DNA from: a virus | Virus record (IMG/VR): IMGVR_UViG_2100351000_000014 | Length of the DNA: 64,000 nt | Strand: one strand, 5' to 3' | Shown here: piece after piece, positions 2,982 to 7,030 of the stretch | How positions within the stretch are numbered: the first letter of the stretch is position 1 | Layout of the letters: each line of letters opens with the position of its first letter | The notes under the pieces: model-generated | Database searches by the model: none | Seen by the model: the letters and a program-made list of their open reading frames with translations, nothing else | What the model was told of the DNA's origin: nothing | Translations under genes and position numbers: made by a program

Positions 2982-3347
2982 CTAATCATCTTTACGGCTA
3001 TCCTTGTCAAGTTTCTGGAGTTCGCGGGCCTCAATATCAGACTGTATCCATCCAAGGAGAATATCGTTAGGACGCGAGGCCCCAGAGTCGGCAAGGAGAT
3101 GGCACCAATGATCGAACACATCGATAGGCCATACGAAATGGTAGAAGTCTAGGCCCTGGGAGCGGAGGGCGTCACGAGGCTTGAGTTTCCCGGGAGTCTT
3201 GGGCGGGGTCTGTGCCGGGCCCTTGGGCTTCTTTTCCTTTGTCTTAGGGGCTGGCTTGGGAGTTGGCTTGGGCTGTCCGACTACCTTGTCAGCTTGAGCG
3301 GAAACGGGGCGCTTAACCTTAACGATGAAATGTTTAGTTGTGGGCAT
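2982..3347 (-). CDS. hypothetical protein with Pro/Lys-rich N-terminus, possibly DNA-binding
   Basis: PKPTPKPAPKTKEKKPK tract then short helical domain; GGAG RBS upstream. Confidence 0.6.
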   Translation of the reverse strand: MPTTKHFIVKVKRPVSAQADKVVGQPKPTPKPAPKTKEKKPKGPAQTPPKTPGKLKPRDALRSQGLDFYHFVWPIDVFDHWCHLLADSGASRPNDILLGWIQSDIEARELQKLDKDSRKDD

Positions 3348-3394
3348 GTATCCTCCTATAAATATCCCCGTCCGGTTAGGGGCGGGGAATAAAC

Positions 3395-4036
3395 TTAGCT
3401 ATCTTCCGCTTCGTCAAAATCAGATTCTGCCATATTTGGTATTGCGTCGTCATTGGAAGATTCTGGCATATCTCCCATTTCCCAAGCATTTGAAAAGTCT
3501 TTATCTGCAAATAATTCAGCAAGCCCGGTTATTTGTTTAAGACGCAAAAGCTCATCCTTATCCATTCCGATATGTTTCATCATCCATCCGTCGCTCATTC
3601 CTGCCTTCGTAAGCTCTCCTACGATGTTAGACATAAGTTCAACAGAATGTTCTCCACGTGCACGATTATGTCTAATAGTCGATGCTATACGATTATCAAT
3701 GTCCTTATCAATTACAACAACAGGTAAAAGTCCATGCTCGCGTTTGTTTATCCGCTCGCTAGTCATTATAACAGTATAACGATGGTAACCATCTACAATC
3801 TCGTATACATCTTCGCTAGCGAGATAGTAGCAAACAATAGGCATAGTATAACCATCTTCCCATATTGAAAGTTCAAGCAATTTCATTTCGGGCGGAGCTA
3901 CATGATTAGGATTATATGAATTAGCCCTAATCTTGCTAACTGGTACACGCAAAACATTATAGACTGGGCTAGTGAAATTAGGGTCTATAACATTAGCTTC
4001 TTTATTCACATCGTCAAAAAGATTGCCACTCATCAT
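3395..4036 (-). CDS. IbrB-like ParB/Sulfiredoxin-domain protein
   Basis: ANSYNPNHVAPPEMKLLELSIWEDGYTMPIV...IVDGYHRY...STIRHNRARGEH. Confidence 0.9.
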   Translation of the reverse strand: MMSGNLFDDVNKEANVIDPNFTSPVYNVLRVPVSKIRANSYNPNHVAPPEMKLLELSIWEDGYTMPIVCYYLASEDVYEIVDGYHRYTVIMTSERINKREHGLLPVVVIDKDIDNRIASTIRHNRARGEHSVELMSNIVGELTKAGMSDGWMMKHIGMDKDELLRLKQITGLAELFADKDFSNAWEMGDMPESSNDDAIPNMAESDFDEAEDS

Positions 4037-4587
4037 CGTACTCCTTTCATCACAACTATCGGCCTATTAAAACCATCAAGTAAATGACTTTTAGCACTCC
4101 CTATCTTGATAGCATCGCTAGGAATAAAATAATTCTTCCTTACATTGGGTCGTTTAGAATCATCGAGCGCAAACTCTGCAATGACATAATCTCCAATACC
4201 GCGCATAGCACTAATCCATTCCTGTGTATCTCCTGGTAAATGATGCAAAACAGACATAGCCAATACAATATCAAAATGACAACAGTTTTTCAATATGGCA
4301 AGATCGGGCAATGACAACTTCCTTTCCAATAGCATTAACTTATCAGTCTTGTTTTTTCTAACATTATCCATACGCATATAAAAATGATCATATTCAAACG
4401 CCATTACAGAACAATTAAAATCTTCTATAAGGCGCAAACCAAAGTAACACATATTAGCCCCAATGTCTAAAACTGATACAGGCTTAATACTTTCACAAAA
4501 ACCTTTCACTATATTATACCTATCGCCACATTGTCTAATGCCAGAAGAAACTAATTTGCCATTGCACCATGTATCCTCATAAACCAT
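4033..4587 (-). CDS. class I SAM-dependent methyltransferase
   Basis: SVLDIGANMCYFG (motif I), FDIVLAMSVLHH. Confidence 0.8.
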   Translation of the reverse strand: MVYEDTWCNGKLVSSGIRQCGDRYNIVKGFCESIKPVSVLDIGANMCYFGLRLIEDFNCSVMAFEYDHFYMRMDNVRKNKTDKLMLLERKLSLPDLAILKNCCHFDIVLAMSVLHHLPGDTQEWISAMRGIGDYVIAEFALDDSKRPNVRKNYFIPSDAIKIGSAKSHLLDGFNRPIVVMKGVR

Positions 4588-5883
4588 TAGAGCTTCCTAT
4601 ACATTTCAAGAGCTTTTCGTTTTCTGCTATTTTGATCTTTAGTCCTTTGGCATCCCATATAAGTCAATGAAAAATACATTCTTCATAATAGTAATACATA
4701 CTCCTTTCCAACTTGGGCATATCCTAAAATTAGCATGGATACTAGTTTCATCCGGCATGCCTGATTTTATTTTTACGATCTCGTATATATCTGGTTTTGT
4801 GCAATTCTTAGCAATAGCATGAGTATTTTCTATCTCAATGCCTTCTTCTTGCATAGCTTTAATTACTCTTGGGTTGCGTCCATATCCTTCTTCGAACCAT
4901 GTTTTTTGCAACCTACCTAAGTGATAAAGTAGTTTTTTTTTAGTAGAATCGGGAAGAGTGTTTATTAAAAACTCAGCATACTGTTTCCATGTAAAATGTT
5001 TGGGCTTTGTAATATTCTTCCAGCCCATAGCAATAGTGCCACCATACATTCCTCCGAAATTGCAACCGTTTACCCTGCCTACCATCCTTCCCCACGTATC
5101 CGGGTCTATGACGCGATACAAATGGAGACTTGCCTGTCCGCACTGATGGAAAGAAGAAGCGACACGCATTTGATCAATAGTTAAACCAGCCTGATAATAC
5201 AAATCGTATACACGGTTATAGTCCCATCCGAATCTACAATTGGCTATCCATACATCCTGGGCCTTCCAGTCAAAAATAGGATAAAAATTACAAATCTTAT
5301 CACTTATCGTTTTAGACCACTTAAGCCCATCGTGCATATAGCGCCTATGCTGGCTAGTGAAAATAGCTCGCCTAGTAAGTGACTCATCAGCACGTATTCC
5401 TACTAATACGGCAGTTTTGCCATAGGTATTAGAAAACCATTCAGCGAAGTATTCACGAGTGTCGAAACCTTTTGTTTTAGGAATGAAAGGGAAAGGGCAA
5501 TTGTCCTCATTAACCACATAATCATATTCCGGCATTGGTCTTACCCATATATCCTTTGATTCCTTTGCCCATGGATACCACCTATTGTCATACATCGAAA
5601 CAGAACAGGCGGCAGAGATAGGGAGGCAAAGCCAAAACCTATGGGCTACATCATTCATAGTCTTGAATGTTCTATCGGCATACTCATGGGTAAATCGATA
5701 ATCAGCTTCATAGTCTTCGTAATAAAAAGACAATTTATGTAAAAGTTTATTTTCCTTAGCATATTTATATGCAAGATTCAGCATTATACCACTATCCTTG
5801 CCACATGAAAATGCTACCAATACATTATCAAAATCAGAGAATATCTTAGCCATTCTAGCCCAAGCTGCATCATATACATTCAC
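4587..5883 (-). CDS. IbrA-like PAPS-reductase / DUF3440 protein (1-nt insertion near 4676)
   Basis: VAFSCGKDSG PP-loop, VGIRADESLTR, YPIFDWKAQDVW; removing one base at 4676 gives the C-terminus KNDFSLTYMGCQRTK...KALEMYRKL ending in a TAATG overlap with the next start. Confidence 0.85.
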
Positions 5884-6260
5884 ATCTTCCTCCTAAACAT
5901 ATCTAATTGGCCTTCATCATAGCATTTTACTCCTCTTTCAGTCAACTCCCTTTTCTTTAATTGCATATATAATTCACATTGTGGGCGAGAGAACCCTAGT
6001 GTTTGAAGCTGAACATCGTTTTTAAGTATGGCCTTACATATTCTCCTATATGATGGTACTAGGCCTCTAGACTCTAGTTCATTAGGGGCTTCATCTGGAA
6101 GGCCGTCTGGATAGCATCTATTCTCCCATGTTTTTATATAAGAAATTATCTTTTCATATTGAGTCATAAGTAAGCTCCATTTGGTAGCTATACAAATATC
6201 TATTGTTCCATAACGCAATAGCATAGTCTGCTCTAGCATTAGCTTTATCTCGTTGCTCAT
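5880..6260 (-). CDS. stand-alone DUF3440 C-terminal-like protein (true start probably about 6167)
   Basis: YIKTWENRCYPDGLPDEAP..LE..GLVPSYRRICKAILKND..LGF resembles the IbrA C-terminus. Confidence 0.7.
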   Translation of the reverse strand: MSNEIKLMLEQTMLLRYGTIDICIATKWSLLMTQYEKIISYIKTWENRCYPDGLPDEAPNELESRGLVPSYRRICKAILKNDVQLQTLGFSRPQCELYMQLKKRELTERGVKCYDEGQLDMFRRKM

Positions 6261-6615
6261 CTGTTAGTTCCCACCATGCTTGCCTTGTTATTTGCTCTGG
6301 ACAATTTATTGCCATACAACATGCAGCATGGCCTATCCATGCACGATGATTTATTGACATATCAGTGAAATTATTTTCACATGATATTGGCCACTCTTTA
6401 GCAACACGCAACATCCAACTTCCATACAATTCATCATCTCCCGTAAAATCGATAGCCAGCCTCAGTAATGATTCTTGTTCCTCCCTATCAAGTTTTCTAT
6501 ACATACCATGTAAGTAGTCCTCCCATAGAGTATATGGATACCACTTCTGCCTAATTTCCTTTAGATTTGTCATATACAATCTTATCATCACTGTATGGGC
6601 TACAATAATAAACAA
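6154..6615 (-). CDS. conserved hypothetical partner of ibrAB-like clusters
   Basis: WEDYLHGMY...EWPISCENNFTD...NHRAWIGHAACC...CPEQITRQAWWELT; family association from recall. Confidence 0.6.
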   Translation of the reverse strand: MFIIVAHTVMIRLYMTNLKEIRQKWYPYTLWEDYLHGMYRKLDREEQESLLRLAIDFTGDDELYGSWMLRVAKEWPISCENNFTDMSINHRAWIGHAACCMAINCPEQITRQAWWELTDEQRDKANARADYAIALWNNRYLYSYQMELTYDSI

Positions 6616-6784
6616 AGTGGGCAGTATTACAATCCTTGCAATGGCTAACCGCCGTCCTAGCCTCAGAGAAGAAATTAAACTTGCAATTACAATCTACACG
6701 ATAAGGCCCCATGCGCTTCGATTGTCTTTGCGCCAAAGATTTTCTTTCTTTCCCCAAAATACACTCCTATAAAAATAAAATACT

Positions 6785-6866
6785 TGCGAGCGAGAGGACT
6801 TGAACCTCCACGCCTTGCGGCATCGGGGCCTAAACCCGACGCGTATACCAATTTCGCCACGCTCGC
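6785..6866 (-). tRNA. tRNA-Leu (anticodon UAG), class II with long variable arm
   Basis: GCGAGCG/CGCTCGC acceptor, TCGGG-TTTAGGC-CCCGA anticodon arm, GGAGG-TTCAAGT-CCTCT T arm, A73. Confidence 0.95.
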
Positions 6867-6872
6867 ATAATT

Positions 6873-6946
6873 TGCCCCAAGAGGGACTCGAACCCTCAAT
6901 AAATTGATCTTGAATCAACCGTGTCTGCCAATTCCACCATCGGGGC
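6873..6946 (-). tRNA. tRNA-Leu (anticodon CAA) with short 5-nt variable loop
   Basis: GCCCCGA/TTGGGGC acceptor, Leu-type D loop GGAATTGGCAGAC, GTTGA-TTCAAGA-TCAAT, variable region TTATT, T arm GAGGG-TTCGAGT-CCCTC. Confidence 0.9.
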
Positions 6947-6948
6947 GA

Positions 6949-7030
6949 TGCCGTAGATGGGACTCGAACCCATAAATGAACGGGGTTTAGGCCCGCGCGC
7001 TGTACCAGTTCGCACTTATCACACTACGGC
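6949..7030 (-). tRNA. atypical tRNA-Leu-like gene (anticodon UAA, C33)
   Basis: perfect GCCGTAG/CTACGGC acceptor and T arm; loop CCTAAAC; about 6 extra nt between acceptor stem and D arm; short variable region. Confidence 0.7.

Follow-up and report, generated by a model that had tools for sequence, protein, structure and literature searches.

The window analysed here is a stretch of 64,000 nt from the virus record IMGVR_UViG_2100351000_000014, in which the module of interest occupies positions 2982-6615. The features of the module and the tRNA genes next to it are as follows:

2982-3347, minus strand: Pro/Lys-rich ORF of 121 aa, no family match
3395-4036, minus strand: ibrB, ParB-like (phrog_2159, E 3.6e-77)
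4033-4587, minus strand: gene for a predicted class I SAM methyltransferase of 184 aa, single domain, assigned to the WbdD family
4587-5883, minus strand: ibrA, PAPS_reduct (PF01507) plus DUF3440 (PF11922), phrog_2302
5880-6167, minus strand: DUF3440-tail protein of 95 aa, covering Pfam DUF3440 profile positions 145-177, phrog_15645
6154-6615, minus strand: orf153, from a family without annotation; likely start at ATG 6573 (139 aa)
6784-6867 and 6873-6946, minus strand: two tRNA-Leu genes (anticodons TAG and CAA), found by ARAGORN and scoring 57-59 bits with Rfam tRNA

Five of these genes (orf153, the tail gene, ibrA, the methyltransferase gene and ibrB) are coupled on the minus strand, as the initial annotation had recognized, and are joined along the module by a 14-nt overlap and by GTGA, TAATG and ATGA junctions. 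The same annotation counted three tRNA genes upstream; ARAGORN and Rfam detect the two tRNA-Leu genes and no third. Genes for SSB and dUTPase also lie upstream of the cluster, and a replisome organiser gene lies downstream. A gene for a Rha-like regulator sits just downstream of the cluster. At the DNA level, megablast returned no close relative when the region was compared with 50,697 phage records; relatives of the terminase reach only about 45% identity, and their hosts are mixed. Promoter and terminator predictions in the cluster were not above shuffled expectation.

The first identification of the locus as an IbrAB-like cluster holds at both genes. IbrA has the fold of a PP-loop ATP pyrophosphatase (PAPS_reduct, PF01507, E 7.8e-11) followed by DUF3440 (PF11922, E 3.1e-51), and matches phrog_2302 with an E value of 3e-89; IbrB matches phrog_2159. 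No solved structure related to IbrA was found. Read literally, ibrA of the window runs into a stop at 4639, its frame being shifted by one extra T at 4676. Two independent assemblies (L097 and L098) lack this base and match the window at every other position over 8.3 kb (100% identity), and we therefore rejected a programmed frameshift. The intact IbrA of these assemblies is 431 aa long, and its stop overlaps the methyltransferase start as TAATG. The PP-loop motif SCGKDS (residues 26-31) is intact, and S26, G28, K29, D30 and S31 are each conserved in 100% of 65 relatives. Other conserved residues are D57, E59, R164, E167 and S168; only two cysteines, C86 and C396, are conserved among the same relatives.

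Like DndB/DndC and BrxP of BREX type 4, the pair combines a PAPS-reductase-fold ATP enzyme with a ParB-fold protein. Sulfur chemistry of the DndC type, which this resemblance had initially brought to mind, is not supported: IbrA scores 26.6 bits against the DndC model TIGR03183 (cutoff, 290.4), PADLOC returns only weak DndC and BrxP fragments, with the DndC match limited to residues 152-249 of IbrA, and the conserved cysteines number only two. In contrast to Dnd systems, IbrA of the window lacks the DndC-type cysteine set for an Fe-S cluster, and no DndA, DndD or DndE partner is present among the six cluster proteins.

IbrB, the ParB/Srx-fold partner of IbrA encoded in the same coupled cluster, is 66-82% identical to the IbrB of very different phages; the protein annotated as IbrB in phage CHPC877 stands at 66%. 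It carries the motifs DGYHR and RHNRARG, matches ParB_N weakly and, among solved structures, matches only Noc, again weakly, in the Noc/ParB N-terminal domain. The order of a PAPS_reduct plus DUF3440 protein and then a ParB-like protein is shared with IbrA/IbrB of the E. coli ECOR-9 island and with YbdN/YbdM. Homologues from Streptococcus phage CHPC877 and Lactobacillus phage AQ113 are 43-45% (IbrA) and 66-69% (IbrB) identical to the proteins of the window. Unlike the E. coli and Firmicute-phage versions, the cluster described here also includes orf153, the tail paralogue and a methyltransferase gene between ibrA and ibrB.

The names IbrA and IbrB go back to E. coli ECOR-9, where the two proteins were described as co-activators of the prophage eib genes, a description carried over into database annotations. 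It was through genetics that IbrAB was defined, as a system that activates prophage gene expression and not as one of modification, which counts against a role in modification. The module could be a regulator, in which IbrB, like ParB or DndB, binds DNA as a transcription factor and IbrA is a nucleotide-dependent switch that activates phage or prophage genes. The eib precedent and the nearby Rha-like regulator fit this idea, and DndB has itself been described as a regulator (PMC12839542). Several features nonetheless make it improbable. The PP-loop is intact and invariant and many other IbrA residues are invariant, which points to catalysis; the clamp-like tails and SNF2 partners described below suit DNA processing better than promoter binding; and only chance-level repeats were found in searches for parS-like or operator-like sites in and near the cluster. 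In the literature that we searched, we found no biochemical function for IbrAB or DUF3440.

ParB-like proteins are also known as partners of DNA-modifying enzymes. One such protein activates phage thymine dioxygenases (5mYOX) and is needed for their action on dsDNA (PMC13229309), and DpdB, the ParB-like partner of the DNA-modifying DpdA, is required for dsDNA in the same way (PMC12839542). IbrB may be analogous, as a small ParB-fold protein likewise encoded beside the enzyme, although the enzyme here has a PP-loop fold, in contrast to the TGT fold of DpdA and the Fe/2OG dioxygenase fold of 5mYOX.

Comparison across viruses defines what is constant in the cluster. Most of 80 IbrB-anchored viral loci have orf153, the tail gene, ibrA and ibrB together, and the four genes stay linked even where their order is permuted (L043, L078 and L080; L045, L084 and L037). 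Cultured phages have the set as well: Gaia (gp103-107), XCL1123, Amjad_SA and Mwe-JY13. The conserved core consists of orf153, a paralogue of the IbrA tail of approximately 90 aa, IbrA and IbrB, with the methyltransferase as an optional fifth member; the window carries the IbrAB-type module in full. The DUF3440 tail duplicate and the conserved hypothetical gene first noted here are real, but they are regular partners of IbrAB elsewhere rather than an expansion specific to this phage. In Lactobacillus and Streptococcus phages, a gene for an SNF2-family translocase overlaps ibrA on its upstream side, in place of orf153 and the tail gene.

The first of these small partners, orf153, adjoins the tail gene in most of the 80 loci and belongs to a family that numbers 852 clusters (50% identity) among 1.84 billion proteins. 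It has no Pfam, PHROG or NCBIfam match; Pfam searches with 23 members gave scattered chance matches only, and the Atlas gave no usable match. The AF2 model is all-alpha (pLDDT 93.9), with no fold relative in the PDB (Foldseek; the best Z score in a wide VIA-align search was 4.5) and matches only to its own family in the AFDB clusters.

The second partner is a paralogue of the last approximately 90 residues of IbrA, from a family of 1172 clusters at 90% identity. Its predicted fold resembles only the C-terminal part of PAPS-reductase/DUF3440 proteins and nothing in the PDB. It carries a C-terminal QLDMF peptide, 4 residues from the C-terminus. Similar endings recur throughout the family: the pattern Q[LI]x[LF](x)[FLIW] closes 106 of 120 database relatives, and 24 of the 38 homologues from related loci finish with QLKLF, QLKLxL or QLTLF. 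Among controls the pattern occurs in 6 of 768 ORFs and in none of 65 IbrA or 52 IbrB proteins. The tail protein of Pseudoalteromonas phage XCL1123 has QMEMF; some tail proteins, including Gaia gp107 and about 12% of the relatives, have no such ending. Clamp-motif-like C-termini are also found in 34 of 150 orf153 representatives, only about a quarter.

The consensus QL(S/D)LF has been quoted for beta-clamp binding at C-termini (PMC9690074), and the QLKLF-like endings of the tail proteins (here QLDMF) are likely to be beta-clamp-binding motifs, judged by their sequence. As in known binders (QL[SD]LF/QLxLxL), the motif comes at the very C-terminus of a flexible tail and is kept across a family whose linker varies; AF2 models the core with pLDDT 84-93, whereas residues 81-95, which hold the motif, are at a low-confidence 51-55 and appear flexible. 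The difference is that the putative motif is carried by a 90-aa paralogue of an enzyme subdomain and not by the enzyme. A linear pattern this short could also bind something else.

One consequence of clamp binding might be attack rather than attachment, with the small proteins hijacking or blocking the host sliding clamp for takeover or counter-defence, and IbrA and IbrB acting on nucleotides or proteins instead of DNA. Toxins that target the clamp with the usual motif exist, SocB among them (PMC9690074), both the tail protein and orf153 can carry clamp-type C-terminal peptides, and NTPs are handled by both ParB/Srx and PP-loop folds. However, the tail protein is paralogous to a subdomain of IbrA, it occurs naturally fused to the IbrA N-terminus in one locus (L024), and its gene is almost always co-located with ibrA. 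An adaptor fits these observations better than a free inhibitor, and we give the hijacking scenario only a small chance.

The methyltransferase is more variable. It matches Methyltransf_9/12/25 and phrog_9361 weakly, and a profile of its relatives (A3) finds WbdD in the PDB with an E value of 1.9e-6 over positions 5-144, the next match being at about 0.5 or above. No other solved structure is a clear relative, and the alignment with WbdD takes in the segment that precedes motif I; the likeness is nevertheless modest (about 30 bits). WbdD is the chain terminator of the E. coli O9a O-antigen, and it methylates a phosphate that its own kinase domain supplies. Phage homologues with 38-41% identity (L092-L094) fuse the methyltransferase to a C-terminal domain and so keep a WbdD-like two-domain layout, and a profile of these fusions (A4) reaches WbdD at E 1.6e-10. 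Their C-terminal domain has no Pfam match and no PDB match from single sequences; its profile gives only a faint match to the catalytic loop of the WbdD kinase. The window protein, by contrast, is a methyltransferase domain alone, with no kinase or other extra domain in its 184 aa, and its gene sits in an operon for nucleic-acid enzymes, not among the genes of a glycan pathway. Its invariant features are motif I (DIGANMxYFG), E65 and SVLHH. We rejected a DNA-base methylase (N6A, N4C or C5), as the catalytic motifs (D/N/S)PP(Y/F) and PC...ENV are absent from the sequence and alignment and the Pfam matches are to Methyltransf_9/12/25 only. By these comparisons the protein is a WbdD-family O-methyltransferase domain and not a DNA-base methylase.

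About 8 distinct viral contigs among the relatives have the methyltransferase gene placed between ibrA and ibrB; in these, the start and stop overlaps are kept and omega is about 0.03-0.25; synonymous sites are saturated, and the values indicate purifying selection. In close relatives the same slot contains a PD-(D/E)xK nuclease, one or more GNAT acetyltransferases, or nothing, and L005, which has the nearest IbrA relative of the window, has no methyltransferase gene. The methyltransferase is thus an optional accessory gene. The insertion noted in the initial annotation recurs, but the enzyme is not a core step of the multistep reaction suggested there, and the changing contents of the slot, which in part are those expected of a variable, unrelated insertion, count to that extent against the suggestion.

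This variability raises the possibility that the methyltransferase is unrelated cargo (a moron) at an ibrA-ibrB recombination hotspot, with a different target, perhaps a sugar-phosphate or a small molecule, as in its WbdD-like relatives. The slot could be such a hotspot, as the nearest IbrA relative lacks the methyltransferase and a nuclease, which is no tailoring enzyme, can take its place. Homologues also occur far from IbrAB, in a glycosylation-type cluster (L094) or with no IbrAB nearby (L092 and L093), and mycobacteriophage relatives adjoin kinase and glycosyltransferase genes. Set against this are the same translationally coupled position and the purifying selection in the roughly 8 diverged contigs, and the loss in the module of the C-terminal domain found in free-standing relatives, which suggests a new partner. 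On balance we regard cargo as a real possibility, although less likely than not.

The position of the module directly downstream of two tRNA-Leu genes, together with weak matches of the methyltransferase to CmoB and Methyltransf_9, might suggest that the adjacent tRNA-Leu is modified by a PP-loop enzyme of the TilS, MnmA or TtcA kind with a CmoB-like methyltransferase. We consider this very unlikely, and the earlier proposal of tRNA as an alternative substrate is correspondingly weak. Only 1 of 60 related loci has tRNA genes near the module, so the adjacency is not conserved and the two genes lie outside the conserved module. The match to the CmoB model is 29 bits against a cutoff of 209, and among solved structures WbdD, rather than CmoB, is the closest. 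The partners bear clamp-like motifs or are SNF2 translocases, and the clamp-like peptide on the tail protein argues for DNA rather than tRNA as the target.

A DNA target for the module is plausible, and the SSB and dUTPase genes upstream, the replisome organiser gene downstream and the SNF2 translocases of other phages fit it. We hypothesize that the cluster directs a modification to DNA as it is replicated, with the methyltransferase as an accessory tailoring enzyme, and that the resulting mark blunts host restriction; we hold this tentatively, as a little short of an even chance. The clamp-binding peptide of the tail paralogue, and often of orf153, would dock IbrA-IbrB on the clamps of freshly replicated DNA. 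There, IbrB may serve as a DNA-handling activator, like the ParB-like partners of DpdA and the phage thymine dioxygenases, and IbrA would spend ATP to adenylate a DNA position that is later substituted. In the sub-lineage that has it, the WbdD-family O-methyltransferase may methylate the product or an intermediate, and the outcome would be a covalent mark on phage DNA that weakens host restriction. A bolder version, in which the WbdD-family enzyme of a clamp-tethered IbrAB methylates a phosphate adduct or the backbone and so creates a previously unknown methyl-phospho DNA modification, is a long shot.

Pairs of the IbrA/IbrB type, often mislabelled as genes of sulfur metabolism, are among the commonest unexplained enzyme modules of phages. 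What is new here is a four-gene core with two partner families, orf153 and the tail protein, that previously had no annotation. A likely hook for the sliding clamp, with SNF2 partners elsewhere, provides a first mechanistic handle and points to replicating DNA as the substrate. The accessory slot, with its methyltransferase, acetyltransferase or nuclease, supplies natural variants for comparison, and Mycobacterium phage Gaia and Pseudoalteromonas phage XCL1123 are cultured carriers in which the set can be tested. If the modification of DNA is borne out, an extensive class of epigenetic or anti-restriction chemistry in phages would open to study.

The Pro/Lys-rich ORF does follow the cluster, as first described, but is not a member of the conserved set, from which it is set apart because it comes after a GC-rich hairpin (about 3366-3387). 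It had no homologue by tblastn in 84 related loci and no match in family searches; weak ribbon-helix-helix-like matches in the Atlas are the sole leads to its nature.

The IbrAB module of the window lies in a series of genes that are all on the minus strand (2982–6946):

6873–6946, minus strand: tRNA-Leu(CAA), detected by ARAGORN and Rfam
6784–6867, minus strand: tRNA-Leu(TAG), detected by ARAGORN and Rfam
6154–6615, minus strand: orf153; homology puts the start at ATG 6573
5880–6167, minus strand: DUF3440-tail protein (95 aa), matching only positions 145–177 of the DUF3440 profile
from 5883 downward, minus strand: ibrA (DUF3440, E = 3e-51; PAPS_reduct, E = 8e-11)
4033–4587, minus strand: class I methyltransferase, with weak Methyltransf_9/12 matches
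3395–4036, minus strand: ibrB (phrog_2159, ParB-like, E = 4e-77)
2982–3347, minus strand: Pro/Lys-rich open reading frame (ORF; 121 aa), separated from ibrB by 47 nt that include a GC-rich hairpin

The initial annotation described five of these genes, orf153 to ibrB, as tightly coupled, which is borne out by their junctions (a 14-nt overlap, then GTGA, TAATG and ATGA). It also counted three tRNA genes upstream, of which two were found; for a third, proposed as a tRNA-Leu(UAA) at 6950–7030, ARAGORN gave no prediction and Rfam no match at E ≤ 0.1. Domain and family profile searches returned no matches for orf153 or the Pro/Lys-rich ORF.

The literal reading frame of the window ibrA ends at 4639. 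Past this point, the next frame resembles the IbrA tails of relatives, and its stop codon is part of the TAATG overlap at which the methyltransferase begins. The same 8.3 kb occur in two metagenome assemblies of independent origin, L097 (ENA) and L098 (JGI), whose contigs measure about 69 kb; both match the window at 100% identity apart from one extra T (minus strand) that the window has at position 4676. Because these assemblies lack the extra T and encode a 431-aa IbrA, we treat the window ibrA as intact; the base probably reflects an error in sequencing or assembly, or else a private variant. Programmed frameshifting was rejected, as the otherwise identical assemblies lack the base. The Pro/Lys-rich ORF is present in the identical assemblies and absent from all related modules, with no homologues found by tblastn in the related IbrB-anchored loci. 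Its structure is poorly predicted (Atlas pLDDT 0.48), and its C-terminal half gave only weak ribbon-helix-helix or CopG-like leads.

We gathered 80 related IMG/VR loci through IbrB and placed all six window proteins in them by tblastn. Together, orf153, the tail protein, ibrA and ibrB co-occur in most of these loci, and the four genes remain grouped despite permuted order (ibrB–orf153–tail–ibrA in L043, L078 and L080; ibrA–ibrB–orf153–tail in L045, L084 and L037). In one locus (L024:3419–4996), the tail protein is naturally fused to the N terminus of IbrA (526 aa). The extra copy of the DUF3440 tail had been taken as an expansion of the cluster; because this copy and the conserved hypothetical protein, orf153, both recur with ibrA and ibrB in most loci, they are not an expansion peculiar to the phage of the window, but regular IbrAB partners. 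Both families are large: the tail protein forms 1,172 clusters at 90% identity, and orf153, searched for among 1.84 billion proteins, forms 852 at 50% identity, its relatives always being small, stand-alone proteins. The four-gene set also occurs in cultured phages, including Mycobacterium phage Gaia (gp103–107), Pseudoalteromonas phage XCL1123, Pseudomonas phage Amjad_SA and Microcystis phage Mwe-JY13. IbrAB is of a known kind, and the window module is a recurrent variant. In Gaia, a further gene, gp105 (L096:3134–3508), separates ibrB from the orf153 homologue. It has no Pfam match, its counterpart in the relative Nebkiss is annotated as GIY-YIG-like, and it may be another case of variable cargo inside the module.

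The SxGKDS PP-loop of IbrA is invariant, with many further invariant residues; among its cysteines, conservation is limited to two, C86 and, within the tail, C396. Nothing supports Fe–S or sulfur chemistry, and the proposed DndC-like sulfur transfer fares no better: IbrA reaches 26.6 bits on the DndC model against a cutoff of 290, which rules it out as a DndC orthologue. IbrB is 66–82% identical across loci in which IbrA shares only 38–75%, hinting at a tightly constrained interaction surface or target. A purely regulatory role for the module is less likely.

The C termini of the tail-protein family consist of a variable linker followed by QLKLF, QLKLxL, QLTLF or QLNLF; the window protein has QLDMF four residues from its C terminus and that of XCL1123 ends in QMEMF. 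Of the homologues in the loci, 24 of 38 carry the motif, as do 106 of 120 relatives from the database; the corresponding counts are 6 of 768 for control ORFs of these loci, 0 of 65 for IbrA and 0 of 52 for IbrB. This peptide matches the bacterial β-clamp-binding motif, QL(S/D)LF, which also has a hexapeptide variant (PMC9690074), and is likely to be a clamp hook. The AF2 model of the tail protein has a confident core and low confidence in the last 15 residues, the pattern that a short linear motif would give; its fold matches only the C termini of PAPS-reductase/DUF3440 proteins. About a quarter of orf153 relatives have C termini that resemble the clamp motif. For orf153, the predicted fold is all-alpha and confident (pLDDT 93.9), and searches of the PDB and AFDB found no relatives outside its own family. 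The fused tail copy in L024 lacks a clamp-type motif. That the module serves to hijack the clamp is a less likely reading of these peptides.

The window module is flanked by SSB/dUTPase on one side and a replisome organiser on the other. In Lactobacillus and Streptococcus phages, a compact SNF2-family translocase or helicase gene (389–411 aa) overlaps the ibrA start in place of the two small proteins (L001:1818–2984 in phage AQ113; L003:1776–3008 in phage CHPC877). These neighbours and partners agree with a DNA target. Modification of tRNA, raised earlier as an alternative from the adjacent tRNA genes, is less likely: such genes lie near the module in just 1 of 60 related loci.

Between ibrA and ibrB lies a variable slot, in which the methyltransferase is optional cargo. 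It recurs there in about eight other distinct contigs (L004/L006/L090, L013, L015, L022, L030, L033, L037 and L089), but in other close relatives the same slot holds a PD-(D/E)xK nuclease of about 175 aa (L007, L012, L038, L047 and L061), a GNAT acetyltransferase (L011) or a family of about 140 aa that is GNAT-like by eye only, with no Pfam match (L008, L025 and L048), and in some it is empty. On the IbrA tree, the window falls within a well-supported clade of 31 sequences, at the base of which methyltransferase, nuclease and empty states are intermixed; its sister, L005, has no insert. This mixture is consistent with the main rival explanation, in which a hotspot has taken up the methyltransferase as unrelated cargo; we consider it less probable than our favoured reading but likelier than the other alternatives. 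Where present, the gene is not transient: omega is 0.03–0.25, with synonymous sites saturated, and motif I (DIGANMxYFG), SVLHH and the acidic residue that follows strand 2 do not vary.

The window methyltransferase has no DPPY-type or PC...ENV motif. Against solved proteins, its profile has a sole clear match, the WbdD methyltransferase domain (E = 2e-6), all others being above 0.5. In WbdD, the phosphate that becomes methylated is first attached to a sugar by the kinase domain of the same protein. The window protein consists of the methyltransferase domain only and adjoins two nucleotide-handling enzymes. Phage homologues with 38–41% identity (L092–L094), remote from any IbrAB genes, are fusions of about 307 aa carrying a C-terminal domain; their profile matches WbdD at 1.6e-10 and, faintly, the WbdD kinase catalytic loop.

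The comparisons establish which genes are present, that the four core genes are linked, that the methyltransferase is optional and to which family it belongs, and that the C-terminal motif is conserved. For the mechanism, we tentatively favour a combined reading, at somewhat short of an even chance, in which the small proteins would anchor IbrA–IbrB to the sliding clamps of replicated DNA, IbrB would be a DNA-handling activator, IbrA would adenylate a position on DNA and the methyltransferase would tailor the product. Precedents for such an IbrB role are DpdB (PMC12839542) and the ParB protein that accompanies phage thymine dioxygenases (PMC13229309). Our literature search found no paper giving IbrAB or DUF3440 a biochemical function, nor any that describes either partner family, the clamp-type peptide or the slot with its changing contents.

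The L094 homologue, on a 112,862-base IMG/VR contig of a large phage, sits among glycosyltransferase and epimerase genes. Besides the WbdD-like fusion, the surrounding sugar-modification-like cluster (L094:600–6900) contains several methyltransferases of class I and an epimerase/dehydratase-like ORF; it is a candidate methyl-phosphate capping system for virion or cell-surface glycans.
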